Source of the DNA: an uncultured Acidobacteriota bacterium
GTDB taxonomy: Bacteria > Acidobacteriota > Polarisedimenticolia > J045
Direction: 5' to 3'
Length of the DNA stretch: 64,000 nt
Assembly (NCBI GenBank): GCA_963702425.1
Contig: CAVPCQ010000006.1
Span: 160,001-224,000, forward strand
Of this stretch, positions 1,830 through 49,308 are shown piece after piece (the stretch's first letter is position 1; every line of letters starts with the position of its first letter). The notes under the pieces are model-generated. The model saw nothing but the letters and a program-made list of their open reading frames with translations. It did no database searches and had not been told where the DNA came from. A program made the translations under genes and the position numbers.

Positions 1830-2284
1830 AGATCCTCTTCGTCTGCACGGCGAATGTCTGCCGCTCCCCCGTGGCCGAGCACTACCTGCGCCGACTCGTC
1901 GAGCGCCTGGGGCCGAGCGTGGTGGAAATCGCCTCCACCGGGACGCACGCGGTGAGCGGACTGCCGTCGGACGGGATCGCCGCGCGGCTCGCGGCCGACC
2001 GGGGTTGCGATCTTGCGCAGCACCGCAGCCAGCCGATGCTGCCGCAGGACGTCGCGGTCGCCGACCGGATCGTCGTGATGGAGCGCCGCCACCGGCAGTT
2101 CTTCGCCGAGTACTACCCCGACGCGTTACCCAAGGTCCAGCTGCTGCTCGCCGGGCCGGACGGAACGGGAGGGCGCGATCTCGCCGACCCGACCGGTGGC
2201 ACGATGGCGGACTACAGGCGCTGCTTCGACCAGCTGTTCGACGCGATCGAGCGCATGGCGCTCTCGTTCCGGTTCCCGCGGTGA
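1826..2284 (+). CDS. Low-molecular-weight protein tyrosine/arginine phosphatase
   Basis: CTANVCRS P-loop and DLADP. Confidence 0.88.
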   Translation: MKILFVCTANVCRSPVAEHYLRRLVERLGPSVVEIASTGTHAVSGLPSDGIAARLAADRGCDLAQHRSQPMLPQDVAVADRIVVMERRHRQFFAEYYPDALPKVQLLLAGPDGTGGRDLADPTGGTMADYRRCFDQLFDAIERMALSFRFPR

Positions 2285-3003
2285 TCGACGAGGAGGGCGA
2301 TCCGCCGCAAGTGCTCCCGCCCGGCACCGCCGAGGAGATCGAATACGTCCGCGCGGTGGAGGAGCGGTTCCGGGCGCTGCGCGAGCGACCGCTGATCCTC
2401 TCCCCTGAGGATCTGGCGCGGGTGGTGGCGTGGCATCGCCGCGGCCTGCCGCTGTTCCTCGTGATCGACACGCTGGAAGAGGTCTTTCGCGAGGCGGCCG
2501 CGAGGCGGCCGCCGCGACGGCCCCGCTCCCTCGCCTACTGCGAGCCGGCGATCGAGGAGGCGGAGCAGGCGTGGCGCGAAGCGGTCGTGGGTCGGCACAC
2601 CGACTCGGCAGCGGCCATCGACGCCGCGACGCTCGCGATGCGCGCGGGGTCCGCGCTGGCTACCTCCGCCGCGCCGGCCGGGCTCGTCGCGCAAGTCCTG
2701 GCGCAACTCGCGAGGAGCGGAGAGGGTGGTCTCCCGGCCGTGCGCGTCGCGGCCCTGCAGCGGGAGCTCGTCGACGGCTGCGCGGCAACGCTCGCAGCGA
2801 CGGAGCGTCAGGAACTCGAGGCCGAGGTCGAGCGGCTCGTCTCCCCCTACGCGGGTGGGATGCCCCCCGAGGTCCGGGAGCGCACCCGGGTCGCGCTGCG
2901 CGACCGCCTCCTGCGGCGGCGTTTCCGCCTGCCGGACCTGACCCTGCTGGCGCTGGTCGAGGCACCGTTCCCGGGCCCGGGAGACTCCCCTTCGGTGGAC
3001 TGA
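2281..3003 (+). CDS. Hypothetical protein, possibly DnaD-like helical domain
   Basis: GTG overlaps upstream stop; LSPEDL..W...GLP and SLAYC pattern. Confidence 0.6.
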   Translation: MIDEEGDPPQVLPPGTAEEIEYVRAVEERFRALRERPLILSPEDLARVVAWHRRGLPLFLVIDTLEEVFREAAARRPPRRPRSLAYCEPAIEEAEQAWREAVVGRHTDSAAAIDAATLAMRAGSALATSAAPAGLVAQVLAQLARSGEGGLPAVRVAALQRELVDGCAATLAATERQELEAEVERLVSPYAGGMPPEVRERTRVALRDRLLRRRFRLPDLTLLALVEAPFPGPGDSPSVD

Positions 3004-3036
3004 GCGGGCCGTCCCCTCCGGCCTCAGGCTGACCGG

Positions 3037-5283
3037 ATGGGACAAGCGACGGGTCTGCTCCTCCTGGCTGCCGCGGCGCTCTGGTCGGGAACGGCGTGCG
3101 GTCCCGCTGCGCCGGCGGCCGCGGCAGGGCCGCTGGCGCTCGCCGCCGGCCTGGCCGCCTGGTGCGCCGCGCGGCGGCGCGAGGGTGGCGCGATCGCGTG
3201 GGCACTGGCCGGGTTCGCGCTCGCGGGCGCAGCGCTCGGCGCCCTCGATGCCGGGGAACGGACCGTGTCCGAGACTGCCGGTCCCGCGCGCGGACGGTGG
3301 ATCGACGCGCGGCCGGTGCGCGGGGGGACCCTGGTCGTGCTCGACGGCCGGGGCCCGGAACGCGTGTTCGTTCCGCGCACGGGCCAGGACTGGCTCGACC
3401 GCCTTCCCGACGGTGCCGCACCCGGGGCGACGATCGAGATCCCGCTGCGCCGCGCGGAGGGAACGGGCACGCCGCGCGCACTCTCTGCGTCGTCGATCGT
3501 CGTCCGCACGCCGGCGCGCGGTCTCGCACGGCTCACCGCCCTCGCCGCGGCGGCCCGCGCCGGCTTCCTGCGTCGCGCGACCGAGCGCCTGGTCAGGGCC
3601 GCGGACGAGGAGCAGGGCGACCCGGCCGGAGCGCTCCTGCTGGCAATGGTCGCCGGCGAGCGCGATGCGCTCGCGGCGGGAGACTGGCGTGCGCTCCGTG
3701 CCTCGGGCCTGGCCCACCAGGCCGTCGTCTCCGGCGTCCAGGTCGGGCTGATGGTCCTGGCCGCGGCGTGGGCCCTGGCTCCGCTCGGCGGCCCCCACGG
3801 CGTCGGCCGGCGCGTCGTCGCGCTGGCCGCGGCGGCGGCGGCCCTGCTGCTGCTCCCGGCCGAGCCGCCGGTCCGGCGAGCCGGCGTCGCGGTGCTGGTC
3901 GCGCGCGCGGGGCGGCTCGCGGGCCGGGGCTCCTCGCCGGCGTCGGCGCTCGCCGGAGCGGCCGCGGTGCTTCTGGCGCTCGATCCGTCGCTCGCGCGCT
4001 CGCTCTCCTTCGCGCTGACCGTGGCCGCCACGGCGGCGATCGTGTGCGGGGCGCGCGGCACGGGCTGGGGTCCGCGGGTGAGGCTCTTCTTCGGCCCGAT
4101 CCTCGCGACCTGGCCGATCCTGGTCGCGATGACCGGCTGTGCCGGCGTCTGGTCTCCCGTGGCCAACCTGCTCGCCGGTCCGGCCGCCGCACCGGCGCTG
4201 CTCTTCGGCTGGCTCGCGGTCCTGCTCCCCGCCGGATCGACGCCGGCAGCGGCGGCCGAGGCGATCGCACGCCTGGGTGCCGAGTGGTTCCTGGTCGTCG
4301 CGCGGGCGGTCTCGGCATGGCCCGGCTCAGGGCAGATCGCCGCCCCCGCCGGCTTGGCGTGGCTCGTGCTCCACGAGGTGCTCTCGTTCGCCTGGCTCGC
4401 CGCCCGGGGACGCGCTGCGATCGCCCTCGGGCTGCTCGCCCTGGCCTCCTTCGGGTGGCCGCTGCGCCCGGCGGCCGCGCCCCCGCCCGGCGCGTCGCTC
4501 GAGGTGCTCAACGTCGGCCAGGGCCAGGCGGTGCTCGTGCGCTCGGGACCGCACGCGCTGCTGATCGACTCGGCCGACGACCGCGCTCGCGACGGGACCC
4601 GGGCCCTGGTCCACGCGCTGCGCGAGCGCGGCGTGTCGCGGCTCGATGCGCTCGTGCTGACGCAGAACGACCGCGACCACGCGGGGGGAGCGCTCGAGCT
4701 GCTGGCGGCGGCACCGCCCGAGCGCCTGCTTGTCGGTGAGAACCTGCTCGACGATCCGGAACTGCGGCCGCTCTACGCGGCGGCGGCGGGTCGCGCGGTT
4801 CCGGTCGTCCCGCTCGCCACCGGGGCGCGCTTCGAGCTCGGCCAGGTCGAGCTCGCGGTGCTCCATCCGCCGCCCGGCGTCTTCGTCCGCGACAACGAGC
4901 ACTCGCTCGTGGTGCGCCTCGCCGGCGAAGGGCTCGACGCGCTGGTGACCGGCGACGCGGGGCTGGCGGCCGAGCGCGTGATGCTCGCAAGCGGCCTGGT
5001 CCGACGCGCGCCGGTGCTCGTGGCGGGTCACCACGGCTCGAAGGGCTCGACCGGCGACGCGCTGCTCGAGGCGCTCGCCGCCCGGGTCGCGCTGATCTCC
5101 GCCGGCAGGGACAACAGCTTCGGTCACCCACACCGGGAGACGCTCGCCCGCCTGGCCGCGCGCCGCGTGCCGTGGCTGGTCACGGCCCGCGACGGCAGCC
5201 TCGCCGTGCGCGCCTGGGCCGGCACGACGACGGTCCGGGGCGCGAACGAAGCGCCAGGCGCGGAGCTCAGGGTACGAAAGTGA
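3037..5283 (+). CDS. comEC: ComEC/Rec2 competence protein (membrane domain + metallo-beta-lactamase)
   Basis: SGLAHQAVVSG, LNVGQG, DRDHAGG, TGD, HHGS and NSFGHPH motifs. Confidence 0.85.
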   Translation: MGQATGLLLLAAAALWSGTACGPAAPAAAAGPLALAAGLAAWCAARRREGGAIAWALAGFALAGAALGALDAGERTVSETAGPARGRWIDARPVRGGTLVVLDGRGPERVFVPRTGQDWLDRLPDGAAPGATIEIPLRRAEGTGTPRALSASSIVVRTPARGLARLTALAAAARAGFLRRATERLVRAADEEQGDPAGALLLAMVAGERDALAAGDWRALRASGLAHQAVVSGVQVGLMVLAAAWALAPLGGPHGVGRRVVALAAAAAALLLLPAEPPVRRAGVAVLVARAGRLAGRGSSPASALAGAAAVLLALDPSLARSLSFALTVAATAAIVCGARGTGWGPRVRLFFGPILATWPILVAMTGCAGVWSPVANLLAGPAAAPALLFGWLAVLLPAGSTPAAAAEAIARLGAEWFLVVARAVSAWPGSGQIAAPAGLAWLVLHEVLSFAWLAARGRAAIALGLLALASFGWPLRPAAAPPPGASLEVLNVGQGQAVLVRSGPHALLIDSADDRARDGTRALVHALRERGVSRLDALVLTQNDRDHAGGALELLAAAPPERLLVGENLLDDPELRPLYAAAAGRAVPVVPLATGARFELGQVELAVLHPPPGVFVRDNEHSLVVRLAGEGLDALVTGDAGLAAERVMLASGLVRRAPVLVAGHHGSKGSTGDALLEALAARVALISAGRDNSFGHPHRETLARLAARRVPWLVTARDGSLAVRAWAGTTTVRGANEAPGAELRVRK

Positions 5284-19448: not shown

Positions 19449-19477
19449 TTGACTTGACTTCGGGCGGTCAGTATTGT
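19449..19477 (+). promoter_or_regulatory. Putative sigma70 promoter
   Basis: TTGACT-N17-TATTGT upstream of the DUF151 gene. Confidence 0.5.
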
Positions 19478-19524
19478 CGCACTTGGGTCGACGGAACGGA
19501 TCGTTCCTCGGGAGGCGGTGCGCC

Positions 19525-20010
19525 ATGCCGGTCGAAATGCGGATCCAGGGCCTCATGCTCGACCCCATCACGCAGGGTCCGCTCATCGTGCTGCGCGACC
19601 CCCGGACGGATGCCAAGCTCCCGATCTGGGTCGGCGCGTTCGAGGCCAACGCGATCGCCACCGAGATGGAGCGGATTCGCATGCCGCGGCCGTCGACGCA
19701 CGATCTCCTGCGCGACGTGATCCAGGAACTCGGTGCGCGGCTGACGAAGGTGGTCGTCACGGACCTGCAGGACAACGTGTTCTTCGCGAGCCTCTTCCTC
19801 GAGACCGCGACAGGGCCGAAGCAGATCGATGCGCGTCCCTCCGACGCGATCGCGCTCGCGCTGCGTTGGGACGCTCCGATCTTCGCGACGCCGGAAGTCA
19901 TCCAGGCGGCCCAGGACATCGACCTCACGCAGGGGTACAAGGACACCGAGCGCTTCCGGCAGTGGCTCGAGAGCCTGGACGAAAGCGACCTCGGCAAGTA
20001 TGAGATCTAG
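19525..20010 (+). CDS. Bifunctional nuclease family protein (DUF151)
   Basis: LPIWVG.FEA.AI, RPSTHDL and DARPSDAIALA motifs. Confidence 0.92.
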   Translation: MPVEMRIQGLMLDPITQGPLIVLRDPRTDAKLPIWVGAFEANAIATEMERIRMPRPSTHDLLRDVIQELGARLTKVVVTDLQDNVFFASLFLETATGPKQIDARPSDAIALALRWDAPIFATPEVIQAAQDIDLTQGYKDTERFRQWLESLDESDLGKYEI

Positions 20011-20049
20011 GCGTCTGCCTGCTTCGTCGCGCGTCTCGCTGCACTGTCG

Positions 20050-20078
20050 TTGATTCGCCCCCTCAACTCGCCTACGAT
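20050..20078 (+). promoter_or_regulatory. Putative sigma70 promoter of parAB
   Basis: TTGATT-N17-TACGAT. Confidence 0.55.
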
Positions 20079-20205
20079 AGCCGCAACGCGGGGCTGTTTC
20101 GCTTTTTATTCGCTTCGGGGCTCCTTGAGAACAACATGACCGCGTTCAACTTCTCCGGTTACGCCCGTTCCGGGCCGACCGGATCACCTCCATGGGTGCC
20201 GCGGA

Positions 20206-20961
20206 ATGATCATCGCGATCACGAACCAGAAAGGCGGTGTCGGGAAGACGACCACCGCAATCAACCTCGCCGCCGCACTCGCTCAGAAGGGCTCGAGCAC
20301 GCTCCTGATCGACCTCGATCCGCAGGGCAACGCGACGCTTTCCTTCATTGATCTGAGCGCGATCGGGCGGTCGATGTACGAGGTCTTCGTCGATCCGGCG
20401 CTCGCCCTTCTGGACGTCGTCGTCCCAGCGCAGCAAGCGAATCTCTCGGTCGCCCCGGCGAGACTGTCCCTGGCGAAGGTCGAGCCGTCCCTGGCCGGGC
20501 AGCTCGATGCGCATTTCCGGCTGAAGGACAAGATCGGCCCGGCCCAGGCCGCCTACGATTTCATCGTCATCGATACGCCTCCGACACTCGGCATGCTGAC
20601 GGTCAACGCGATGATCGCGGCGACCCACCTTCTGGTCCCGATTCAGCCCTCCTACTTCGCGCTGGAAGGGACCGACGACCTGGTCGAGACGTACGAGCGG
20701 ATCCGGGTCCGAGCCAACCCCGACCTGCAGTTCCTGGGAGTCGTGCTGACGATGTACGACCGGCGTACGATCCTGGCGCGCGACATCGAGCGGCAGATCG
20801 GCGAGGTCTTCAAAGAGAAGTTGTTCCAGACCCGCATCAGCAAGAGCGTCCGGCTCGAGGAATCACCCGCCTACAAGGAGTCGATTTTCACGTTCGCGCC
20901 CTCGTCGAAGGGAGCGGAGGAGTACTATCGGCTTTCCGAGGAGGTACTGAAGCGTGGCTAA
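20206..20961 (+). CDS. parA: ParA/Soj-family ATPase
   Basis: NQKGGVGKTTT deviant Walker A, DLDPQGN and DTPP. Confidence 0.93.
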   Translation: MIIAITNQKGGVGKTTTAINLAAALAQKGSSTLLIDLDPQGNATLSFIDLSAIGRSMYEVFVDPALALLDVVVPAQQANLSVAPARLSLAKVEPSLAGQLDAHFRLKDKIGPAQAAYDFIVIDTPPTLGMLTVNAMIAATHLLVPIQPSYFALEGTDDLVETYERIRVRANPDLQFLGVVLTMYDRRTILARDIERQIGEVFKEKLFQTRISKSVRLEESPAYKESIFTFAPSSKGAEEYYRLSEEVLKRG

Positions 20962-21916
20962 GGGAAGGGGACTGCCTCCCGACGTAAGAACCCGGGCGGA
21001 CGCGCACTACGTGGACGCGATCACGTCCGGGCGGATGGGCTCGGTCGGGCGAATGATCGACATCGAGCGCCTGGTGCCAAACCCGACCCAGCCTCGCAAG
21101 AGCCTGCGGGACATCGATGCGCTCGCCGAGTCGGTCCGGGAGCGTGGAATCCTCGAGCCGATCCTGGTCCGTCCTACGGAGGACGGCCGTTTCCAGATCA
21201 TCGCCGGCGAGCGGCGGTTTCATGCAGCCAAGCAGGTCGGCTTGACGATGGTGCCGTGCGTGGAGCTCGACGTCGACGAGCGGGGCTGCCTCGAGATCAG
21301 CCTGATTGAGAACCTCCAGCGGCGGGACCTGACGCCGTTCGAAGAAGCCGAGGCGATCGCGAGGCTCGTTGAGGACTTCCAGTACACACACGAGCAGATC
21401 GCCCGGAAGCTGGGGCGATCGCGCAGTTCGGTGACCGAGCTGCTGAGCCTCAACCGGATGCCCGAGTCGGTGAAAGAAGCATGTCGGCGCGCCGACATCA
21501 TGACGCGGACCGTCCTGATGGAGATCGTTCGCCAGGAGTCTGAGGAGGACATGCTGGCACTGGTGGACGCGGTCTTGTCCGGGAGCTTGACCCGGGATGA
21601 AGTGCGGGAGCTGAAGCGGAACCCGGGGGCCAGCGCGCCAGCCCGAGACGATGCGCGCGGACGTCCCTATGTGTTCCGCTACCGCCCGCCGAACCGCGAC
21701 TTTCAGTTGAGCCTCCGGTTTGAGCGCGAGGTCGTCGAGCCGAGGGAGCTGCTCGATATCCTGGAGCAGATCGTTTCTGACCTGAAGTCCCAGGTCGCCG
21801 ACGAGCGGCCCAGGGTCTCGACACCGCGTCCGGCCAGCATTTCCAACGAAGACGCGGGCGGGGCTGCGGCGAGCGGGAGAGGTCGCGTGTCGGTCGGTCC
21901 CGAGACCTCCCACTAG
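20954..21916 (+). CDS. parB: ParB/Spo0J-family CTPase, non-canonical paralog
   Basis: NPTQPRK, IIAGERR, ENLQRRDL and HTH (THEQIARKLGRSRSSVTELL). Confidence 0.88.
   Translation: MAKGRGLPPDVRTRADAHYVDAITSGRMGSVGRMIDIERLVPNPTQPRKSLRDIDALAESVRERGILEPILVRPTEDGRFQIIAGERRFHAAKQVGLTMVPCVELDVDERGCLEISLIENLQRRDLTPFEEAEAIARLVEDFQYTHEQIARKLGRSRSSVTELLSLNRMPESVKEACRRADIMTRTVLMEIVRQESEEDMLALVDAVLSGSLTRDEVRELKRNPGASAPARDDARGRPYVFRYRPPNRDFQLSLRFEREVVEPRELLDILEQIVSDLKSQVADERPRVSTPRPASISNEDAGGAAASGRGRVSVGPETSH
21481..21498. promoter_or_regulatory. Perfect 18-bp palindrome inside parB, candidate parS-like site
   Basis: ATGTCGGCGCGCCGACAT. Confidence 0.5.
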
Positions 21917-21973
21917 GATCGGTTCAGAAGGAGGGACGAAGCGTCGTCACCCTTCTCTTTGCTGGCTTTCATT

Positions 21974-22001
21974 ATTTGACATAATCATCATTATCGGACA
22001 T
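21974..22001 (-). other. dif: dif-like XerC/XerD recombination site
   Basis: Minus strand ATGTCCGATAA-TGATGA-TTATGTCAAAT, 11-6-11 layout; XerD arm matches E. coli TTATGTTAAAT at 10/11; lies in an AT-rich intergenic patch. Confidence 0.85.
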
Positions 22002-22060
22002 TGTGGAAAACGGTGCAGGGCGGTGACCTGCGGTAGAATCCGGGTCCCCCGAGGCATGCG

Positions 22061-24499
22061 ATGAGGCTCTGGACGCGGCTCGACCGCTACGTGACCCGCG
22101 AACTCGGGCCGCCGCTCCTACTCGGCTTCGCCGGTTTTACCCTGGTCCTTCTGCTGCAGGCGCTCTTCATGATCGCCCGCCAGACGATCGAGAAACGCGT
22201 CCCGTTCAGCCTGCTTCTGGGCTTCGTCGTGGCCGAGTTGCCCCGGCTCTTCGCCTTCACGATCCCGATGGCGATCCTGCTGGCGGTCCTGGTGGGGATC
22301 GGCCGGATGGCATCCCAGGGCGAGATCACGGCCCTCCGGGCGGCGGGCGTCGGCCCGTCGCGGATCCTCCGCCCGGTCCTCGCCGTCGCTTCGCTCCTCG
22401 TGCTGCTCTCCCTCGCGAACGCCCACTATCTCGTGCCGATGGGCCAGATGAAGCGCCGCGCCCTCGTCCAGGAGATCGTCCGCGCCCGGGACCTCTCCCG
22501 CGAAACCGAACCGGGGGTCTTCTATCGCGGCCTCCCCGGGGCCGTGCTCTACGTCCGCTCCGTCTCCCAGTCGACCGAGGGGCCCGTCTTCGAAGGCGTC
22601 CTCCTCCAGCGACAGACCAACGAGTCGTCCGACTTGATCGTCGCCCGCCGGGGCCGGCCGATCTTCGACCGTGAATCCGGGCGGATCAGCTTCCTCCTCG
22701 ACGACGGCGAATGGCACATGTCCCGCCCCGACCGACCAACGACCTACAGCCGGGTGCGATTCGAACGTCACACGCTCACTTTCCCGCCCGACCCGGCTTT
22801 CCGCGCTTTCACCCGCTCGCGCTTCGAGGACCCGGGCACGCTCGCCGGGCCCCAGCTCTACGAGCAGGTGCGGGAGCTCGACGCCCGGGCCGCCGCGGCG
22901 ACCGAGACGGGCGCGCGGATCGCCGCAGAGCGCAAGGGACGGCTGACTCGGATCGAGTGGCAGCGTCGCTGGGCTATCCCGCTCGCGTGCCTCGCGCTGG
23001 CCTTCGCCGCTTTCCCCCTCGCGATGCGTCACCGCCGCGGCGGCATGTTCGCTGGACTTTCGCAGACCATGATCGTTATCTTCTTCTACTACCTCGTGTT
23101 ATCGACCGGACAGGGGTTCGCGGAACAAGGCACCTGGCCCCCGTGGCTCGCGGCCTGGATACCAGACATCGTTGCCGTCGGATTCGGACTTCTCGCGTGG
23201 CGTGTCGCGGCACGGCCGGAGCGGACCCGCTCACTGGCCGGAGCCCTTGCAGACCTATTCAGACGCCGCCCCAGGGAGACCCGTCTCCCGGGCGCCGTCG
23301 AGGCCACGAAGGCGGCCTCGGGGCCGCAGAGTCCTCCCCCGCCCGCCCCCGAACGGGCGACCGCTCCGCCCCGGCGTCGCCCGCGCTTCGGGCTTCAGAC
23401 CATCGACCTCTACCTCGCGGGCAGCTTCCTCCGCATGACCGCCGCGGTCCTGTTCGTGCTGCTCGTCCTGGCGCTGGCGATCGAGTTCAAGGGAGCGGTG
23501 GACAACGTGCCCGACGACGCCAAGGACTTCCCCTGGCGCTCCGTCCTGGCCTACGTCTTGCTCTCGATCCCCGGCCAGCTCCGCCTCATGGTCCCGATTG
23601 CGGCCCTCGTCGGGGTCTCGATCGCCCTCTCAGCCCTGGCGCGCGCCAACGAGCTGATCGCCATGAAGGCCTCGGGAATCGGTCCGGTCCGGATTGCGGT
23701 TCCGATGGTGGTTGCGGCGGCCGGGATCTCGCTGCTGCTGGTCGCGGTCCAGGAGCGCATCATCCCCGCCGCGGAACGCGAATCGCGCGCGGAACTCGAC
23801 CGGATCGCCGGCAAGTCGAGCGCCCGCGAGGCCGACGGAGGGCGGCGGTGGATCGTCGGCCATGACGATCGTCTGTGGGCGTATCTCGATGTCCCCGCGG
23901 GAAGCGCGGCCCTGGTCGAGCCCGGCGTGGTGGCCGTCGACTGGCCCAACGCGAGAATCCTCGAGCGAATTGAAGCCCGCGAGGCGAACTACGCCGACGG
24001 AACCTGGGACTTCCTCCAGGGCTGGCGCCGCTCGTTCGATGCTCAGGGCGCCGAGAGCTACGAAGCCTACCCGCGCTGGCGCTCCCGCGACACCGAGTCG
24101 CCCGAGCTCTTCGGAGCGGTTCGGAGCGGGATCGTCTTCGGACGCCGGATCGCCGACCAGATGAGCTTCCAGGAGCTTCGCAGCCATCTCCGCCGGATGG
24201 CCAACGCGGGCTACGACGCCGCACCGCTGCTCGTCGGCCTCAACGAGAAGCTCGTGATGCCGTTGCTCCCGATCGTCCTGGTGCTCGTCGCGATCCCGCT
24301 GACGGTATCCGGCTGGTCGCGGCGCGGCTCTCTGGCCGGGTTCGGCTACGCGCTCGTCATCGTCTTCGTCTTCTGGGTGATGTGGGCCGTTTCGACTTCG
24401 CTCGGGAGTGAATCGATCATCGACCCCGTGCTGGCGGTCTGGAGCCCCCCGATCCTGGTCGGCGTGTTCGGGATCTGGCTGCTCGGTCGCGCCCGTTGA
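22061..24499 (+). CDS. Fused LptF-LptG LPS export permease
   Basis: Two tandem YjgP/YjgQ units (LDRYV..GEITALRAAG; IDLYL..NELIAMKASG) joined by a Pro-rich linker. Confidence 0.88.
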   Translation: MRLWTRLDRYVTRELGPPLLLGFAGFTLVLLLQALFMIARQTIEKRVPFSLLLGFVVAELPRLFAFTIPMAILLAVLVGIGRMASQGEITALRAAGVGPSRILRPVLAVASLLVLLSLANAHYLVPMGQMKRRALVQEIVRARDLSRETEPGVFYRGLPGAVLYVRSVSQSTEGPVFEGVLLQRQTNESSDLIVARRGRPIFDRESGRISFLLDDGEWHMSRPDRPTTYSRVRFERHTLTFPPDPAFRAFTRSRFEDPGTLAGPQLYEQVRELDARAAAATETGARIAAERKGRLTRIEWQRRWAIPLACLALAFAAFPLAMRHRRGGMFAGLSQTMIVIFFYYLVLSTGQGFAEQGTWPPWLAAWIPDIVAVGFGLLAWRVAARPERTRSLAGALADLFRRRPRETRLPGAVEATKAASGPQSPPPPAPERATAPPRRRPRFGLQTIDLYLAGSFLRMTAAVLFVLLVLALAIEFKGAVDNVPDDAKDFPWRSVLAYVLLSIPGQLRLMVPIAALVGVSIALSALARANELIAMKASGIGPVRIAVPMVVAAAGISLLLVAVQERIIPAAERESRAELDRIAGKSSAREADGGRRWIVGHDDRLWAYLDVPAGSAALVEPGVVAVDWPNARILERIEAREANYADGTWDFLQGWRRSFDAQGAESYEAYPRWRSRDTESPELFGAVRSGIVFGRRIADQMSFQELRSHLRRMANAGYDAAPLLVGLNEKLVMPLLPIVLVLVAIPLTVSGWSRRGSLAGFGYALVIVFVFWVMWAVSTSLGSESIIDPVLAVWSPPILVGVFGIWLLGRAR

Positions 24500-24505
24500 A
24501 CGGAT

Positions 24506-27500
24506 CTAGGGCCGGCCGTAACGCGCCCCGTGGGGCCCGAGCAACTCCTCCAGTGCAGCGACCAGGGGGCGTCCGGCGCGGACCCGGCGGTGCTCGTCGG
24601 CCTGTAGCACGACGCGGTAGGCGCCCGGCCGGATGACTTCGAAGAAGACCGGCACCGGCCCCGGGTGGTCGGCCAGGATCTCGTTCACGCGCCGGAGCCG
24701 GTCGTCGCCGACGAGCGCGGCATCGATCCGGATCGTGAAGGCCTCGATCGGCCGCAGGGTCGCTGTGTCGAGCGGGACCACCCCCTCGGCGAGCAGCCGG
24801 ACGGGCCCCTCCTCCCCGTCCGCCCGCCCGCGCACCACCACCGCCCGTTCGTCGGCCAGGGCCTCGCTGACGTCGCGGTAGAGCTTCGGGAAGACGACGA
24901 CCTCCACGCTCCCCGTCATGTCCTCGAGGTGGAAGGTCGCCATCCAGTCGCCCTTGTTGGTGCGCTTGCGCTTGAGCCCGGCGATCAGGCCGCCGACGGT
25001 CACCTCGCCGCCGCCGCGCAGCGCGGAGACGGTGTGCGTCGCGACCTCCTCCAGCCGCTCGCGCAGCGCGTCGAGCGGGTGTCCCGAGAGGTAGAAGCCG
25101 AGCGCCTCCTTCTCCCCGGCAAGCCGGTCGCGGTCGGGCCACGGCGGCACCTCCGGCAGCCTCGAGGCCGACGTCGGCGCCAGCGGCTCGTCGCCGCCGA
25201 ACAGGGAGTGCTGCCCGGTCGACCGCGCGGCCGCGACCCGCGCGGCGCGCTCCATCGCGGCCTCGACGGCGGCGAAGAGCCGCGACCGCTCGCCGAGCGC
25301 GTCGAGCGCGCCCGACTTGATCAGCGCCTCGAGCGCGCGCCGGTTCAGCAGGCGCCGGTCGACCTCCAGGCCGAGCTCGTCCAGGCTGGAGAAGCTCCCC
25401 AGTCGCCCGCGGGCCTCGAGGATCGCGTCGACGGTTCCCTCCCCCACGCCCCGCAGCGCGGCCATCCCGAACCGCACCGCCTCCCCCTCGACCTCGAAGT
25501 AGCGCCCCGAGCGGTTGACGTCGGGCGGAAGGACCGGGATGCCCATCTCACGGCACTCGCCGAGGTACTCGACCAGCTTGTCGGTGTTGTCCTTCTCCGT
25601 GGTCAGGAGCGCCGCCATGAACGCCACCGGGTCATGGGCCTTCAGGTACGCCGTCTGGAAGGCAACCAGCGCGTAGGCTGCCGAGTGCGATTTGTTGAAG
25701 CCATAGCCCGCGAAGTGCTGCATCAGGTCGAAGACGTGCGCGGCGTCATCCGTCCGGACGCCCTTCCCCCCCGCCCCCTGGACGAACCCCTCGCGCTCCG
25801 ACGCCATCGCCTCGGCCTTCTTCTTGCCCATCGCGCGCCGCAGCTGGTCGGCCTGTCCCAGCGAATACCCGCCCAGGACCGAGGCGCACTGCATTACCTG
25901 TTCCTGGTAGACCATCACGCCGTAGGTCGGCTTCAGGATCGGCTCGAGCAACGGGTGCGGATAGGCCACCTTGACCCGGCCGTGACGCCGCTGGATGAAA
26001 TCGTCGATCATCCCGGCCCCGAGCGGCCCGGGGCGGTAGAGCGCGTTCAGCGCGATCAGGTCGTCGAAGCGCTCCGGCTGCATCCGGCGCAGGATGTCGC
26101 GCATCCCCGATGATTCGAACTGGAACACGCCCGCGGTGTGCGCCGCGCGAAACAGCGCGAAAGTCTTGGGGTCGTCGAGCGGCAGGTGGTCCACGTCGGG
26201 GGGCGTGCGGCCAGTCTTCGCGATCAGCGCCACGCAGTCGGCGATGAGCGTCAACGTCTTCAGGCCGAGGAAGTCCATCTTGAGCAGGCCGACGGCCTCG
26301 ATCTCGTCCTTCGCCCACTGGGTGGTGATCTCGTCGCGGTTCGACTGCGTCGACAGTGGTGCGAACTCCACGACCGGACGCGGCGTGATGACGACTCCGG
26401 CCGCGTGGGTGCTGGCGTGCCGCGACAGCCCCTCGATCCGCAGCGCAATGTCGAGCAGCTCCTTCTCCCGGCCTTCACCCTCCTGCAGCAGCTTGAGCCC
26501 CGGCACCTCGCGGATCGCGTCCTCGAGCCGCTTGCCGAGCTCGTCGGGCACCAGCTTCGCGATCCGGTCGGCGTCCGCGTACGGGAAGCCCAGCACGCGG
26601 GCCGCGTCGCGGATCGCGGCCTTGGCGGCCATCGTGCCGAAAGTGATGATCTGGGCCACGTTCTCGCGGCCGTACTTGCCGCGGACGTAGTCGATCACCT
26701 CCTCGCGGCGGCGGAAGCAGAAATCGATGTCGATGTCCGGCATCGACACGCGCTCGGGGTTCAGGAAGCGCTCGAACAGCAGGTCGTACTGCAGCGGATC
26801 GATGTCGGTGATTCGCAGGCAGAACGCCACCAGCGACCCGGCCGCCGAGCCGCGTCCGGGGCCGACCGGGATCCCCTGCTCGCGGGCATGCCGGATGAAG
26901 TCCCAGGTGACGAGGAAATAGCCGGCGAACCCCATCTGGACGATCGTGCCCATCTCCCAGGCCAGCCGCTTCTCGTACTCCTCGAGCGGGTGCCGCAGCA
27001 GCCCCGCCTGCTCCGCCGCGTGCCAGCCCGGCCGCCGCGCCTCGAACCCGCGCCGCACCTCGGCCCGGAAGGCGCTCTCGAGCGTCTCGCCGGGCGGGAC
27101 CGGGAAGTCCGGCACGAGCGTGCGTCCCAGATCGAGCTTGACGTCGCAGCGTTCGGCGACTTCCAGCGTGTTCTCCAGCGCGTCCGGCCGCCAGGCGAAG
27201 CACTCTCCCATCTCGTCGGCGGTCTTGAAGTAGTGCTCGGTCGTGTAGTGCATGCGGTCGGTATCGTCGCGCTTCTTGCCCGTGCCGATGCAGACCAGGA
27301 CGTCGTGCGCCGCGTGATCCTCGCGCTGCAGGAAGTGCGTGTCGTTGGTCGCGACCAGCGGGAGTCCGGTCTCCTCGTGCAGTCTGACCAGCCCCTCGTT
27401 GACGATCTTCTCCTCGGGGATCCCCTGGTCCTGCAGCTCGAGGTAGACGTTCTCGGGGCCGAAGATCCCCACCAGTTCGTCCAGCGCCTCGCGGGCGCGG

Positions 27501-27964
27501 GCGTGGTCGCGCTGCCGCAGGTAAGTCGGGACCTCGGCCGCCAGGCACCCCGAGAGCGCGATGATCCCCTCGGCGTGCTCGCGCAGCAGCTCCTTGTCGA
27601 CGCGCGGGCGGTAGTAGTACCCCTCGAGGTAGCCGAGCGTCGAGAGCCGGGTGAGGTTGGAGAAGCCGGTCGAGGTCGCGGCGAGCAGGGTGAGGTGGTA
27701 GTAGGGCTTGCGCCCCGGACCGCCCGGCGAGCGGTCGAAACGGCTGCCCGGCGCAACGTAGACCTCGCAGCCGAGGATCGGTTTGATTCCGGCCTTCAGC
27801 GCCGCCTGGTAGAACTTGATCGCGCCGTGCAGGTTGCCGTGATCCGTCATCGCGACGGCCGGCATGCCCAGTTCCTTGGCCCGTGCCACGAGCCGTCCGA
27901 CGGGCTGGGCCCCGTCGAGCAGGCTGAACTCGGTGTGGTTGTGCAGGTGGACGAAGGAACTCAC
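24506..27964 (-). CDS. dnaE: DNA polymerase III alpha subunit
   Basis: FVHLHNHTEFSLLDG PHP domain, PDIDIDF, YGFNKSH and OB fold; GTG start at 27964. Confidence 0.97.
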   Translation of the reverse strand: MSSFVHLHNHTEFSLLDGAQPVGRLVARAKELGMPAVAMTDHGNLHGAIKFYQAALKAGIKPILGCEVYVAPGSRFDRSPGGPGRKPYYHLTLLAATSTGFSNLTRLSTLGYLEGYYYRPRVDKELLREHAEGIIALSGCLAAEVPTYLRQRDHARAREALDELVGIFGPENVYLELQDQGIPEEKIVNEGLVRLHEETGLPLVATNDTHFLQREDHAAHDVLVCIGTGKKRDDTDRMHYTTEHYFKTADEMGECFAWRPDALENTLEVAERCDVKLDLGRTLVPDFPVPPGETLESAFRAEVRRGFEARRPGWHAAEQAGLLRHPLEEYEKRLAWEMGTIVQMGFAGYFLVTWDFIRHAREQGIPVGPGRGSAAGSLVAFCLRITDIDPLQYDLLFERFLNPERVSMPDIDIDFCFRRREEVIDYVRGKYGRENVAQIITFGTMAAKAAIRDAARVLGFPYADADRIAKLVPDELGKRLEDAIREVPGLKLLQEGEGREKELLDIALRIEGLSRHASTHAAGVVITPRPVVEFAPLSTQSNRDEITTQWAKDEIEAVGLLKMDFLGLKTLTLIADCVALIAKTGRTPPDVDHLPLDDPKTFALFRAAHTAGVFQFESSGMRDILRRMQPERFDDLIALNALYRPGPLGAGMIDDFIQRRHGRVKVAYPHPLLEPILKPTYGVMVYQEQVMQCASVLGGYSLGQADQLRRAMGKKKAEAMASEREGFVQGAGGKGVRTDDAAHVFDLMQHFAGYGFNKSHSAAYALVAFQTAYLKAHDPVAFMAALLTTEKDNTDKLVEYLGECREMGIPVLPPDVNRSGRYFEVEGEAVRFGMAALRGVGEGTVDAILEARGRLGSFSSLDELGLEVDRRLLNRRALEALIKSGALDALGERSRLFAAVEAAMERAARVAAARSTGQHSLFGGDEPLAPTSASRLPEVPPWPDRDRLAGEKEALGFYLSGHPLDALRERLEEVATHTVSALRGGGEVTVGGLIAGLKRKRTNKGDWMATFHLEDMTGSVEVVVFPKLYRDVSEALADERAVVVRGRADGEEGPVRLLAEGVVPLDTATLRPIEAFTIRIDAALVGDDRLRRVNEILADHPGPVPVFFEVIRPGAYRVVLQADEHRRVRAGRPLVAALEELLGPHGARYGRP

Positions 27965-27988
27965 GGCGCTCTTCCTGAAGTCTTGACT

Positions 27989-28168
27989 GTAGGGCCGCCC
28001 TCTGTGCCGCCGCTCGGGCCGGCACGGAGGCCGGCCCCTACATCCGTCTGCCGCGGCGGCCGGCCTCGTGCACCTCGGGCGCAGGCCGCTACTCCGGGCC
28101 TCGGCACGGAGGCCGGCCCCTACATCCGTCTTGCACGACCGCGGGCCGGCACAGAGGCCGGCCCCTAC
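27989..28168. repeat. Cluster of GTAG-type REP-like palindromic elements
   Basis: Three to four copies of GTAGGGGCCGGCCTC(C/T)GTGCCGGCCCG in both orientations, some degenerate. Confidence 0.85.
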
Positions 28169-29712
28169 TCCCACTCGATTGTAGCAGGGGGCTTCGAGGT
28201 GATGTCGTAGACCACGCGGTTGACGCCGCGCACCTCTCCGACGATGCGTCCGGCCGCGCGCGCGAGCAGATCGTGCGGCAGCCGCGACCAATCGGCGGTC
28301 ATGAAGTCGTCGGTGTTGACCGAGCGCAGCGCGATCACGTGCTCGTAGGTCCGGCCGTCGCCCATCACGCCGACCGTCTTGAGCGGCAGGAAGACCGCGA
28401 AGGCCTGCGAGGTTCGGTCGATCCAGCCCGATTCCTGGAGTTCCTCGCGGAAGATCGCGTCGGCCTCGCGCAGCATCAGCAGCCGCTCCTCGTTCACCTC
28501 GCCGATGATCCGCACCGCGAGCCCCGGCCCGGGGAAGGGGTGCCGGTGGACGAAGGCGTGGTCCAGCCCCAGCCGCTCGCCCAGCTCGCGCACCTCGTCC
28601 TTGAAGAGCCACGCCAGGGGCTCGATCAGCCCGAGCTTCATCCGCTCCGGCAGGCCACCGACGTTGTGGTGCGTCTTGATCGTCGCCGAGGGGCCGCCGC
28701 TGACGGTCTTCGACTCGATCCGGTCGGGGTAGATCGTCCCCTGCGCCAACCACGTCGCGCCGCTCCGCGCGGCGTACTCCTCGAACACCGCGACGAACTC
28801 GCGGCCGATGATCCGGCGCTTCTGCTCGGGCTCGGCGACGCCGGCGAGTGCGTCGAGGAAGCGCTTCCGTGCGTCGGCCCGCTGGACGTGCAGCCCGTAG
28901 CGTCCGCGGAAGGTCGAGACGACCTGCTCGGCCTCCGCCTTGCGCAGGAGGCCGTTGTCGACGAACACCGCTTCGAGCCGCTCGCCGATCGCACGGTGGA
29001 CGAGCAGCGCCATCACGGACGAGTCGACGCCGCCGGACAGCGCGCAGACGACGCGCCCCTCGCCTCCGACCTTGCGCTGGATCTCCGAGATCGCCTCGCG
29101 CTCGTAGGCGGCCATCGACCAGTCGCCCGAACAGCCGCAGACGTCGAGCGCGAACCGCCGCAGGAACGCGCTGCCGTGTTCGGTGTGCCGCACCTCGGGG
29201 TGGAACTGCACGGCGTAGCGGTGGCGCCGGGGGTCTTCGGCCGCCGCGAACGGCGTGCTCGAGGTCCTGGCGACAGCGTGCATCCCGGGCGGGAGGGCGG
29301 TGATGCTGTCGCCGTGGCTCATCCAGACGACGCTCTCACGCGGCCAGTCGGAGAAGAGCACGGAGGGCGCCCCGTCGAGCTCCAGCGTGGCGCGGCCGAA
29401 CTCGCGCTCGGGAGCCGGCTCGACCCGTCCGCCGCAGCGGTGCGCCAGGATCTGCATTCCGTAGCAGATCCCCAGCACCGGCTTCCCGGTCGCCAAGACC
29501 TCGTCGGTGACGGTCGGGGCGGTCGGCTCGTACACCGATGCGGGGCCGCCGGAGAGCACGATGCCCCGCACTTCCGGCGCCGCGATGCGCGCCGCCGCCT
29601 CGGCCGGCGGAACGACGACCGCGAACACGCCTGCCTCGCGGATCCGGCGGGCGATCAGCTGCGTCACCTGGCTGCCGAAGTCGATCACCAGGATCGTTTC
29701 GTGGAGCGCCAC
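28165..29712 (-). CDS. guaA: GMP synthase (glutamine-hydrolyzing)
   Basis: DFGSQ, GICYGMQ, QFHPEV, SGGVDS and KPPATIEWE. Confidence 0.97.
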   Translation of the reverse strand: MALHETILVIDFGSQVTQLIARRIREAGVFAVVVPPAEAAARIAAPEVRGIVLSGGPASVYEPTAPTVTDEVLATGKPVLGICYGMQILAHRCGGRVEPAPEREFGRATLELDGAPSVLFSDWPRESVVWMSHGDSITALPPGMHAVARTSSTPFAAAEDPRRHRYAVQFHPEVRHTEHGSAFLRRFALDVCGCSGDWSMAAYEREAISEIQRKVGGEGRVVCALSGGVDSSVMALLVHRAIGERLEAVFVDNGLLRKAEAEQVVSTFRGRYGLHVQRADARKRFLDALAGVAEPEQKRRIIGREFVAVFEEYAARSGATWLAQGTIYPDRIESKTVSGGPSATIKTHHNVGGLPERMKLGLIEPLAWLFKDEVRELGERLGLDHAFVHRHPFPGPGLAVRIIGEVNEERLLMLREADAIFREELQESGWIDRTSQAFAVFLPLKTVGVMGDGRTYEHVIALRSVNTDDFMTADWSRLPHDLLARAAGRIVGEVRGVNRVVYDITSKPPATIEWE

Positions 29713-46869: not shown

Positions 46870-49308
46870 ATGCTGCGCGATCTGCTCGACGCCCCGCGGG
46901 GCCGGGAAGCGGTGGGGATCCTGTTGACGGGGGCCGCGGTGCTCTGCGCGCTGGCCCTGTCCACCTTTACCCCGACCGACCCCTCCTTCTTCGCCTCCAG
47001 CAGCACCGGCGCGACGCACAACTGGATCGGACCGGCAGGAGCCCAGGTCTCGGCCGCGCTCTACGAGACCTTCGGCCTGGCCGCCTGGTTCCTGCCGTTG
47101 ATCCTGATCGCTGGGGCGCTCCGGCAACTGCGGCGGAGCAGCGAGACGCTGCGCGGCTCGGCGGTGCTGGGGCTGGTCCTGGTCGGCCTCGCGACCGCGA
47201 TTCTGATGTGCCTGATCGCCGGCCGGATCCGGCTGCGCGGCGCGTCGATGATGGCCGGGGGACTGGTCGGCAGCCTGTTCTCCCAGGGCCTGACCGCGAT
47301 CGCCAGCGACGTCGGCGCGGTGATCGTGGCCGGGACGATGCTGCTGGTGGGCTTGGCGCTGGCGGCCCGCTCGTCGCTGGCCGACTCAGCCGAAGACGCG
47401 AGCCGGGTGGTGCGGCGCGCCGTTCCCAAGGGGACCGGCCCGGCGCTCCGTCGCGGCGCGTGGCGCGTCACCGGATCGCTCGGGAGCGGCCTCGCGGGGG
47501 CGGGACGGGCGCTCGCCCGCCTGCGGCCCGCCCGGCCGCGGCCCGCGGTCCCCGTCGCCTCGATCGAGCCGGAGCCGCTCGACCTCGGCCCGGTCGCTGT
47601 GCTCGCCTCGGCGCTGCCGAGCGCGCCGGTCGCGGACGAGCCGGTCCTCCTGCCGCCCGACCTGGCGCTCCCGGAGGAACCCGCCGACGAGGACCTAGAT
47701 GACGCGACTGCCGCGGCTGCGGCCCCGGCCGGCCGGCGTGCCGCGAAGCGTGCCGGCCACCGGAGCACCCAGGCCTCGCTGCCGGTCGACATGCCCCTGG
47801 CGCACGCCAAGCTCCCGCCGCTCGAGCTGCTCGGCTCCCCCCCGCCGCAGGCCCCTCCCGACCGCCAGGAACTGCTCGCGATCGCGCGCCACATCGAGCG
47901 CCGCTGCGCCGAGTTCCAGGTCGAGGGGCAGGTCACGGAGTTCCACCCGGGCCCGGTCGTCACGACCTACGAGTTCCGCCCCAATGCCGGGATCAAGCTG
48001 GCCCGGATCACCTCGCTCTGCGACGACCTGGCGCTGGCGCTCGAGGCCGACAACGTCCGGATCGACCGGATCCCGGGGCGCCCGACGGTCGGGATCGAGG
48101 TCCCGAACCGCCGCCGCGAGCTGATCGCGCTGCGGCCGCTGCTCGAGCACGAGAGCTTCCGCCGGCCGAACGACCCGCTGACGATCGCGGTCGGGCGGAC
48201 GCAGGAGGGCGAGGTCTTCGTCACCTCGCTGTCCAAGATGCCGCACCTGCTGGTCGCCGGCTCGACGGGGTCGGGCAAGAGCGTCGGGCTCAACACGATC
48301 ATCACCTCGATCCTCTACCGCGCCCGGCCGGACCAGGTGAAGTTCATCATGGTGGACCCCAAGATGCTCGAGCTGGGGATCTACCAGGGGCTGCCGCACC
48401 TGCTGGTCCCGGTCGTCACCGACATGCGGCTGGCGACCAACGCGCTCAAGTGGGGGGTGCGCGAGATGGAGCGGCGCTACCGGCTGCTCGCTTCGTGCAA
48501 CGTGCGCGACCTCGAAGGGTTCAACCGCCACGTCGAGGAGGACCCGGAGGGCGTCCGCAAGGCGATCGAGAGCATTCCGCGCCGCGGCGAGGGGGAGCGC
48601 TTCGAGGTCAAGACGCTCCCCTACATCGTGGTCGTGGTCGACGAGCTGGCCGACCTGATGATGACCACCGGCCACGAGGCCGAGGAGGCGATCGCGCGGC
48701 TGGCGCAGAAGGCGCGCGCGGTCGGGATCCACCTCGTGCTGGCGACGCAGCGCCCGTCGGTCGACATCCTGACCGGCACGATCAAGGCCAACTTCCCGGC
48801 CCGGATCGGCTTCCGCGTCGCCTCGCGCATCGACTCGCGAACGATCCTCGACGGCTCCGGCGCCGAGCGCCTGCTGGGCCAGGGCGACATGCTCTTCCGG
48901 CTCCCCGGCAGCTCGCGCCTGCAGCGCGTGCACGGCGCCTACGTTTCCGAGGAAGAGGACCTCCGGATCGTGCGCTGGCTGCAGACCCAGGCCAAGGCGG
49001 AATACGACAAGAGCGTGCTCGAGGATCAGCCCGAACCGGCCTCCGAGAACGGTGGCGGGCTGGGCGAGGCGTTCAACCCGAACGACCCCGTCTACCGCGA
49101 CGCGGTCCGGCTGGTCGTGCAGTCGGGGCAGGCCTCCACGTCGTACCTGCAGCGCCGGATGAAGCTCGGCTACTCCCGCGCCGCGCGGATCATCGACCAG
49201 ATGCAGGAGGACGGGGTCGTCGGCCCGCCGGACGGCAGCAAGCCGCGGCAGATCCTGGTCGAGACCGACTACCTGGAGCGGTTGAACGACCCGCGCAACG
49301 ACCTGTAG
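46870..49308 (+). CDS. ftsK: DNA translocase FtsK
   Basis: 4TM N-domain, AGSTGSGKS, DELADLM, ATQRPS and gamma domain. Confidence 0.96.
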   Translation: MLRDLLDAPRGREAVGILLTGAAVLCALALSTFTPTDPSFFASSSTGATHNWIGPAGAQVSAALYETFGLAAWFLPLILIAGALRQLRRSSETLRGSAVLGLVLVGLATAILMCLIAGRIRLRGASMMAGGLVGSLFSQGLTAIASDVGAVIVAGTMLLVGLALAARSSLADSAEDASRVVRRAVPKGTGPALRRGAWRVTGSLGSGLAGAGRALARLRPARPRPAVPVASIEPEPLDLGPVAVLASALPSAPVADEPVLLPPDLALPEEPADEDLDDATAAAAAPAGRRAAKRAGHRSTQASLPVDMPLAHAKLPPLELLGSPPPQAPPDRQELLAIARHIERRCAEFQVEGQVTEFHPGPVVTTYEFRPNAGIKLARITSLCDDLALALEADNVRIDRIPGRPTVGIEVPNRRRELIALRPLLEHESFRRPNDPLTIAVGRTQEGEVFVTSLSKMPHLLVAGSTGSGKSVGLNTIITSILYRARPDQVKFIMVDPKMLELGIYQGLPHLLVPVVTDMRLATNALKWGVREMERRYRLLASCNVRDLEGFNRHVEEDPEGVRKAIESIPRRGEGERFEVKTLPYIVVVVDELADLMMTTGHEAEEAIARLAQKARAVGIHLVLATQRPSVDILTGTIKANFPARIGFRVASRIDSRTILDGSGAERLLGQGDMLFRLPGSSRLQRVHGAYVSEEEDLRIVRWLQTQAKAEYDKSVLEDQPEPASENGGGLGEAFNPNDPVYRDAVRLVVQSGQASTSYLQRRMKLGYSRAARIIDQMQEDGVVGPPDGSKPRQILVETDYLERLNDPRNDL

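Follow-up and report, generated by a model that had tools for sequence, protein, structure and literature searches.

A putative second ParABS system beside dif at the replication terminus of an acidobacterial chromosome

What is a pair of chromosomal partition genes doing at the place where replication ends? This question is raised by a parA-parB operon, here called parA2-parB2, which sits beside a dif-like site in the genome of an uncultured Acidobacteriota bacterium (assembly G000; 5.10 Mb in 42 contigs, ~71% G+C). We analyzed the 64,000-nucleotide stretch that carries it (G000:C6:160001-224000; hereafter the window) and compared the locus with those of relatives, all of them assemblies or metagenome-assembled genomes. 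Handling of the terminus (ter) is ascribed to FtsK/XerCD, topoisomerase IV, and lineage-specific organizers. The available part of a review (PMC7333895) treats ParABS as an origin-proximal system that segregates origins. An earlier note on this DNA had proposed that the two genes form a second ParAB dedicated to the ter/dif region. The location of the locus, the presence of a second, canonical system, and conserved adjacency to dif support that proposal, from which we infer a role in segregation. As judged from sequence, the locus very probably has the anatomy of a complete ParABS (motor, adaptor, and centromere) whose centromere marks the terminus. That it is a second ParABS dedicated to the terminus, with the replication terminus as its cargo, is a functional step that we hold with less assurance and regard as probable.

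The dif site, the terminus, and the distant origin

The parB2 gene ends in a TAG stop codon at 21914-21916, and the 28-bp site ATTTGACATAA-TCATCA-TTATCGGACAT occupies positions 21974-22001. Re-measured from these coordinates, the gap is 57 bp, the same distance that had been given for a dif-like site of 11-6-11 layout. The layout is that of dif: 28 bp arranged 11-6-11, with inner inverted repeats, present once per chromosome. We found the site only once in the 5.1-Mb assembly, where the runner-up differs at 5 of the 18 arm positions, and the XerD-arm-like word TTATGTNAAWT has a single occurrence in the whole genome. Since the XerD-like arm TTATGTCAAAT comes last when dif is read on the minus strand, this arm is on the parB2 side. 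Counted by hand, the 28-bp site agrees at 20 positions with the dif of Frankia alni given in the available part of Kono et al. 2011 (PMC3025954), and the outer XerC arm and central spacer account for the mismatches; that part of the paper predicts dif in three Acidobacteria and leaves par genes unmentioned. Among relatives, whose spacers are otherwise unalignable, the 28-mer forms an island of conservation in which the arms are kept and the 6-bp spacer and the flanks vary.

Strand composition places the terminus at this site. On the 445-kb contig C6, on which the terminus skew analysis was run, the cumulative G-C curve peaks at C6:182,078, 77 bp from dif, and the G-C skew changes from +0.023 (left arm) to -0.020 (right arm). 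The KOPS-like sequence GGGNAGGG flips its polarity at dif, with plus-to-minus counts on C6 of 36:9 to the left and 16:61 to the right. The octamers most skewed toward dif are G-rich; GGGAGGGG stands at 41:4 overall (20:0 to the left and 4:21 to the right, plus to minus). Both signals, which the earlier note had named as a check, map to dif. Gene orientation, counted on crude GC3-filtered open reading frames (ORFs), changes as well: left of dif, the window has 14 genes on the plus strand and none on the minus strand, against 6 and 12 to the right, and ORFs within 50 kb are distributed 26:1 and 8:13, respectively. The window counts put the strand switch at ~22.0 kb; the orientation change claimed by the note is real, but its position is not the ~24.5 kb given there, and the plus-strand lptF-lptG gene lies just past the switch. 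Skew and polarity behave similarly in two relatives, in which GGGNAGGG flips at dif and the skew maximum is 129 bp (the same-genus genome G004) or 3.3 kb (G042, Vicinamibacterales) from the site.

The genome also encodes the proteins that would act on dif: XerD (model score of 344.5 bits, above the cut-off; C6:137,290), a second Xer (308 bits, contig C4), and an FtsK with a gamma domain (FtsK_gamma, 103.7 bits). Together, the unique site, the convergence of skew and KOPS-like polarity, and the Xer and FtsK-gamma genes supply every in-silico hallmark of a terminus dif. On a separate point, ftsK is ~25 kb from dif and xerD (C6:137,290-138,153, outside the window) is 44 kb away on the other side, so the dimer-resolution genes are themselves terminus-proximal in this genome.

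The window is free of oriC-typical genes, as had been claimed; dnaA, mnmG, rsmG, and mnmE are on contig C24. Two ParB_N genes are present in the genome, and the second is also on C24, in the classical array mnmE / rsmG-mnmG / parA1-parB1, 22 kb from dnaA and on the same contig as the skew minimum. Two identical canonical-type parS sites, TGTTCCACGTGGAACA, are found at C24:38,248 and 38,295, 47 bp apart, between parA1 and mnmG (locus L003), and a genome-wide search for TGTTNCACGTGNAACA-type parS gave none beyond these two and none near parAB2. A separate canonical parAB with its parS beside mnmG/rsmG, 22 kb from dnaA, is what the idea of a second system had called for. ParB1-type genes are 8-22 kb from dnaA in G000, G004, G030, and G033. 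The origin is served by this ordinary ParA1-ParB1-parS set. The parAB2 locus lacks the origin proximity of a canonical ParABS: it coincides with the skew maximum, and the pair near the origin is the one on C24.

This geometry holds beyond G000. In 9/9 single-contig or chromosome-scale genomes, the dnaA-parB2 distance is ~41-50% of the chromosome, expressed as a share of an approximate, rounded genome size (G125, 47.5%; G107, 46.4%; G141, 47.2%; G267, 49.6%; G206, 41.8%; G215, 46.8%; G248, 47.3%; G042, 49.1%; G041, 40.7%). G006, a single contig that is 74% complete and without dnaA, was left out of this comparison.

ParA2, ParB2, and the candidate centromere parS2

ParA2 carries the deviant Walker-A motif KGGVGKT at residues 9-15 and is 42% identical to the origin-linked ParA1 over its full length, and the GTG start of parB2 overlaps the parA2 stop. 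In ParB2, an N-terminal K-x-R-G-L-P peptide is followed by a CTPase-type N domain and a helix-turn-helix (HTH) domain whose recognition segment is altered; a linker then leads to a beta-beta-alpha C-terminal domain, and the tail is disordered. The QPR, GERR, and ENLQR motifs are invariant across 28 ParB2 orthologues, in keeping with the claim that this ParB retains the CTPase motifs GERR and ENLQR. The claimed RGL peptide is likewise there, as part of the conserved stretch M-S-K-x-R-G-L-P...R-M-R-A-D-x-H-F-V; this N-terminal peptide is conserved yet modeled as disordered, as expected for a motif that contacts ParA. Alignments to T. thermophilus Spo0J and to the genome's own ParB1 agree that DIMTRTVL takes the place of GHARALL (GHGRALA in ParB1), as the earlier note had it. 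Identity between ParB2 and ParB1 is 40% and is confined to the N-terminal 175 residues.

The closest sequences to ParB2 in the PDB are T. thermophilus Spo0J, C. crescentus ParB, and Noc (1vz0, 6t1f, and 7ng0), and in NCBIfam the protein passes TIGR00180 (151 bits; cut-off, 58) and no equivalog model. An AlphaFold2 model built from the 28 orthologues has confident N and HTH domains, a low-confidence linker (223-236), and disordered ends, and its beta-beta-alpha C-terminal unit (239-283; pLDDT, 83-91) aligns with the C terminus of ParB1. The top Foldseek match of this model is the C. crescentus ParB-parS complex 6t1f (TM score of 0.81 on target). All Foldseek matches are C-terminally truncated structures, so there is no direct structural match for unit 239-283; the model suggests that ParB2 carries a ParB-type C-terminal dimerization domain.

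A candidate centromere, parS2, was first spotted by eye as a palindrome in the spacers of relatives and then followed by pattern search; an automated inverted-repeat search of 19900-22200 gave nothing. Its consensus is TGTCGGC-NN-GCCGACA. In G000 it is found inside parB2, 476 bp upstream of dif, where it encodes the conserved peptide C-R-R-A-D-I just ahead of the altered recognition segment, and it is the sole copy with TGTCGGC/GCCGACA arms that the 5.1-Mb assembly contains. A search of 41 genomes belonging to the same class gave 38 copies in 35 genomes; 37 of these copies map to the parAB2 locus and one, on G010:C24, lies elsewhere. A reversed-pattern control gave 0 matches in the same 41 genomes. 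Six class genomes have no palindrome; four of these are assemblies in which ParB2 was not found, and G015 has a copy with 1 mismatch. The palindrome was also not found in five ParB2-less acidobacterial genomes. Our set of ParB2 loci comprises 55 distinct loci, the window's own included (L009-L045 and L179-L196), the relatives being non-independent samples; 51 of the 55 have perfect palindrome arms. A palindrome that is distinct and tied to the parAB2 locus supports the change in ParB2 DNA specificity that had been predicted from its recognition segment. As a cis palindrome at or near the operon, the candidate site has what is looked for in a ParABS centromere.

The codon usage of the genic copy is unusually rigid. 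The codons of CRRADI are frozen as TGT CGG CGC/T GCC/A GAC in 22/22 orthologues that have this peptide; by comparison, the other conserved cysteine of ParB2 is encoded by TGC in 21 cases and by TGT in 7, and 31% of the arginine codons in the gene are CGG. In L033, L034, L035, and L037, whose peptide has become CREAGI or CRSAGI, the codons have changed with it and the parB2-dif spacer holds a copy of the palindrome; L020 has one genic palindrome and two spacer copies. This pattern suggests that parS2 is held by selection at the DNA level. In Aminicenantes/Saccharicenans the palindrome is ~90-100 bp upstream of parA2. Copy number and spacing vary among the other genomes: G125 and G267 have one palindrome each, inside parB2; G043 and G082 have one each, at most 1 kb from parB2; G141 has five, all within 77 kb of parB2; and the 6.6-Mb Vicinamibacterales contig of G042 has seven, all within 246 kb.

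ParB-partnered ATPases of the ParA family can regulate FtsZ, as MipZ does in Caulobacter, and this background favors a role in division licensing or terminus occlusion, in which ter-bound ParB2 would recruit or activate ParA2 in a MipZ- or Noc-like manner and unsegregated termini would hold back or place the divisome with the DNA unmoved. ParA2 has a weak Pfam match to MipZ (2.1e-12), the Noc model TIGR04285 is the best NCBIfam match of ParB2 by E-value (153 bits, below the cut-off of 315), and ftsK is 25 kb away. However, ParA2 scores far better as a Soj-type ParA (178 bits for AAA_31 versus 47 bits for MipZ) and is 42% identical to ParA1; ParB1 outscores ParB2 on the Noc model (228 versus 153 bits), so that match is generic; and the parS2 sites number one to seven and are at ter, against Noc's many scattered sites without a ParA partner. 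We therefore consider division licensing unlikely. The identification of ParB2 as Noc itself was rejected on its score against TIGR04285, on the one to seven sites at ter, and on the presence of an adjacent parA in 54/55 loci.

Conservation and spread of the module

Immediately upstream of parB2, parA2 is found in 54 of the 55 loci (50-97% identity), and the remaining locus is cut by a contig end. A dif-like site follows parB2 within the fetched flank in 46/55 loci, L022 included (for three of the 55, <400 bp of downstream sequence was at hand). It is at most 300 bp away in 38/55, and its orientation is the same in 44/46; in L040 and L193 the dif-like site is inverted relative to the other 44. 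Adjacency of parA, parB, and dif in relatives, another check raised by the earlier note, is therefore kept across several acidobacterial lineages. The gene BFN precedes parA2 in most of the 55 loci, and most of the phylum shares the order miaB-BFN-parA2-parB2-dif-lptFG, with Aminicenantes as an exception. One locus, L029 (G033:C6), has a parB2 frame at 1495-3099 that would encode 535 aa, versus 273-321 aa in the others, and no dif-like site in the 753 bp downstream of parB2; the extra length may reflect a fusion at the C terminus or a misassembly.

Such tight linkage to dif, with orientation kept, could also mean that the module is an accessory of DNA transactions at the terminus, its ParB2 clamps around dif modulating XerCD/FtsK resolution or decatenation, or loading or unloading SMC, with ParA2 secondary. 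XerD, a second Xer, and FtsK-gamma are all encoded, and ParB loads SMC at origins according to the available part of the review cited above (PMC7333895). Against it, the extra parS2 copies of G141 and G042, at distances from dif of tens to hundreds of kb, fit a regional centromere better than a dif-specific cofactor, and roles of this kind need no conserved ParA partner. Moreover, dif works without ParB2 in 107/251 genomes, and in the ParB2-less genome G072 a dif-like site stays beside BFN, 280 bp past that gene. We judge an accessory role to be quite unlikely.

The spread of ParB2 was assessed in 251 Acidobacteriota genomes (at least 90% complete, 166 genera), with a ParB2-type call at E <=1e-45. 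ParB2 is present in 144/251 genomes and 115/166 genera, always in single copy. Named relatives that carry it are Vicinamibacterales, Ca. Aminicenantes, Ca. Saccharicenans, and uncultured Acidobacteriota, and all are Acidobacteriota or unclassified. In a wider contig search, 7 of the 80 loci listed were ParB2-type and the rest were generic ParBs. Two genomes flagged as unpublished are within these counts, G034 (in the ParB2 listing, the phylum sample, and the class-wide palindrome search; loci L038 and L215 derive from it) and G063 (in the phylum sample), and the conclusions are independent of both.

We built a quick maximum-likelihood ParB tree with SH-aLRT supports only, from 96 rows: 28 ParB2, 7 acidobacterial ParB1 (6 of 12 fetched plus that of G000; ORFs of 230-420 aa), and 61 of 73 other ParB loci. 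One row, L062, has a long branch. All 28 ParB2 sequences group in a single clade (SH-aLRT of 100), which has a long stem of 1.02. The 7 acidobacterial ParB1 fall among other chromosomal ParBs, apart from the ParB2 clade, whose attachment point has no resolution in the tree. None of the plasmid ParBs in PLSDB is closer to ParB2 than ~31-44% partial identity.

The long stem that separates ParB2 from acidobacterial ParB1 would also suit an evolutionary relic, that is, a module that came from a plasmid, a chromid, or a dif-integrating (IMEX-like) element and is now a selfish or autoregulated cassette that does nothing for the chromosome. Insertion at dif is known from Xer-exploiting elements, some of which, like the gonococcal genetic island, bring parAB with them; the order miaB-BFN-dif in G072, which lacks parAB2, is compatible with an insertion at dif. 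But G000 has a single dif-like site (the runner-up having 5/18 mismatches), the module is retained in single copy in 115 genera within the housekeeping synteny described above, and plasmid ParBs are no closer than stated. A relic would also leave unexplained the invariant functional motifs, the relocation of parS2 when the coding copy is lost, and the recruitment of extra parS2 copies around ter. We regard a relic without function as very improbable, and the scenario may instead describe where the module came from. A dif-integrated mobile element was rejected as an identity for the locus, given one dif-like site, conserved housekeeping flanks, and single copies in 115/166 genera. Division licensing, a dif/SMC accessory role, and a relic all rank below a ParABS dedicated to the terminus.

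The features of the locus are collected in Table 1. Upstream of parA2, the window holds rpsA, an IHF-like gene, a HIT gene, miaB, and BFN; downstream of dif are lptF-lptG and dnaE. A terminator-like hairpin with a T run is found at 20088-20102, between BFN and parA2, and BFN is probably on a separate transcript; a promoter scan upstream of parA2 found no sigma-70-like site.

Table 1. Coordinates of the parAB2 locus and of neighboring features in the window.
Feature	Position	Strand	Remarks
BFN gene (bifunctional-nuclease domain, PF02577)	19474..20010	+	Pfam 1.1e-39; conserved upstream neighbor
parA2	20206..20961	+	251 aa; Soj-type deviant Walker-A ATPase; Pfam AAA_31 2e-52, CbiA 5e-25
parB2	20954..21916	+	320 aa; ParB/Spo0J family; ParB_N 4.6e-26, HTH_ParB 1.1e-16
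Candidate centromere parS2	21481..21498 (16-bp core 21482-21497)	no strand	Perfect 18-bp palindrome ATGTCGGCGCGCCGACAT inside parB2
dif, 11-6-11	21974..22001	-	XerCD dimer-resolution site; unique in genome, at skew maximum
Cumulative G-C maximum of contig C6	22078 (C6:182,078)	no strand	Taken as replication terminus
Fused lptF-lptG permease gene	22061..24499	+	Pfam LptF_LptG 1.4e-138, two stretches; synteny
ftsK	46870..49308	+	PF09397 103.7 bits, 860-aa open frame; gamma domain ~49078-49260; 25 kb from dif

Several further observations concern the surroundings. The genes lptF and lptG form one 812-aa ORF with two LptF_LptG domains, which is the first gene past dif and runs head-on to the right-arm fork. 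The dnaE ORF (24506-28753, minus strand) has an N-terminal extension of ~270 aa, rich in Arg, Gly, and Ala, ahead of the PHP domain, and the true dnaE start is probably internal to the listed ORF. Elsewhere in the genome, G000:C17:11985-14766 and G000:C19:124203-126933 each hold three adjacent tyrosine-recombinase genes on one strand, in the manner of a recombinase-in-trio, and several DnaA-like/IstB-like AAA matches are also on C17.

Proposed mechanism and relation to known systems

For a ParABS dedicated to the terminus, the most economical mechanism would put the known chemistry of ParABS to work on a new cargo. ParB2 dimers would load at parS2 as CTP-gated sliding clamps and spread over nearby kilobases, and such spreading would place dif inside the ParB2 complex. 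The K-x-R-G-L-P peptide of ParB2 would stimulate nucleoid-bound ParA2-ATP, and a diffusion ratchet could then hold the single terminus at mid-nucleoid and, after replication, drive the sister complexes apart, by analogy with the equipositioning of plasmids. In this way dif would be kept at the closing septum for FtsK/XerCD, and the termini would then be cleared from the septum, while the distinct parS and N-terminal peptide would insulate ParABS2 from the origin ParABS. Extended to the phylum, the model would make many Acidobacteriota chromosomes bi-centromeric, with an origin ParA1-ParB1-parS and an orthogonal terminus ParA2-ParB2-parS2, each with its own motor, dif held at the division plane, and the sister termini then pulled apart; we see the case for this extension as evenly balanced.

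Several observations weigh against this reading. Plasmid ParABS serves only as an analogy for the mid-nucleoid and equipositioning behavior. The skew picture is less clear in the Aminicenantes chromosome G041, whose maximum falls 23 kb away from dif and whose right arm is noisy, and no GGGNAGGG polarity was seen around dif there. The palindrome is distant from parB2 in family f75 (452 kb in G215, C1:4117636; 410 kb in G248, C1:1520693), and a third member, G206, has none; ParB2 matches are weakest in this family (~180 bits, starting at residue 33), which may use a variant site. G107 has only copies with 1 mismatch, and L186 and L195 show neither palindrome nor dif within 1.5 kb. Finally, 107 of the 251 sampled Acidobacteriota are without ParB2, among them whole families (e.g., 0/19, 0/8, and 0/4), so the system is dispensable for the way of life of the phylum.

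The closest comparison is with chromosomal ParABS systems (Soj/Spo0J of B. subtilis and T. thermophilus; ParAB of C. crescentus and M. xanthus), with which the acidobacterial system shares protein families, domain order, CTP-clamp motifs, the parA-parB operon, and a 16-bp palindromic centromere, and which provide the best sequence and fold matches of ParB2. The spo0J gene of B. subtilis carries a copy of parS inside it, as parB2 does with parS2. In contrast to the origin-proximal placement described in the available part of the review (PMC7333895), acidobacterial parAB2 is at the terminus, beside dif. The parS2 palindrome, TGTCGGCNNGCCGACA, also differs from the TGTTCCACGTGGAACA found at the origin of G000 itself, the recognition segment and N-terminal peptide of ParB2 are changed, and the system coexists with a canonical one on a single chromosome. 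Vibrio cholerae chromosome 2, with its ParAB2-parS2, likewise gives one cell an orthogonal second ParABS that has a parS specificity of its own; there, as in other secondary replicons, the system serves the origin of a separate replicon, whereas the acidobacterial pair is on one chromosome, about half a genome apart.

Among terminus organizers, MatP/matS of enterobacteria and ZapT of Caulobacter resemble the module in marking ter sequence-specifically with sites confined to ter, possibly with a link to the divisome or FtsK. MatP and ZapT belong to protein families unrelated to ParB2, and we know of no ATPase motor partner for MatP; the acidobacterial system, unlike them, is a triad of motor, adaptor, and centromere. 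Noc of Firmicutes, to which ParB2 has good structural matches, is reportedly (Jalal et al.) a ParB paralogue with switched DNA specificity and is in that respect like ParB2. However, Noc has no dedicated ParA, many chromosome-wide sites that are rare at ter, and a membrane-targeting N terminus, whereas ParB2 has a ParA partner and sites at ter. Plasmid systems such as F SopABC and P1 ParABS offer the likeness proposed for function, with a single cargo at mid-nucleoid and two cargos at quarter positions on a ParA gradient; unlike a plasmid, the cargo here would be a chromosomal locus physically joined to the rest of the nucleoid.

A full-text literature search on terminus-proximal ParABS, acidobacterial parS, ParB paralogues, and the palindrome yielded no report of a ParABS at the terminus and none of this palindrome. 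To our knowledge, positioning and separation of the terminus are left to FtsK, MatP-like organizers, or passive mechanisms in all studied bacteria. The findings suggest that these Acidobacteriota actively position or separate the end of their chromosome, in a way undescribed in model bacteria. Predictions are clean, with a defined site (TGTCGGC-NN-GCCGACA), one copy per genome in many species, and system-free relatives as contrasts, and parA2-parB2-parS2 could find use as an orthogonal partition cassette and as a ParB/parS pair for labeling. If the reading is true, this conserved, orthogonal ParABS tied to dif would give the first example of a terminus centromere driven by a motor. A single chromosome would then be shown to accommodate duplicated and insulated versions of both ParB DNA specificity and ParA-ParB pairing, and there would be a natural system in which to ask how the position of the terminus is coupled to septum closure and dimer resolution.

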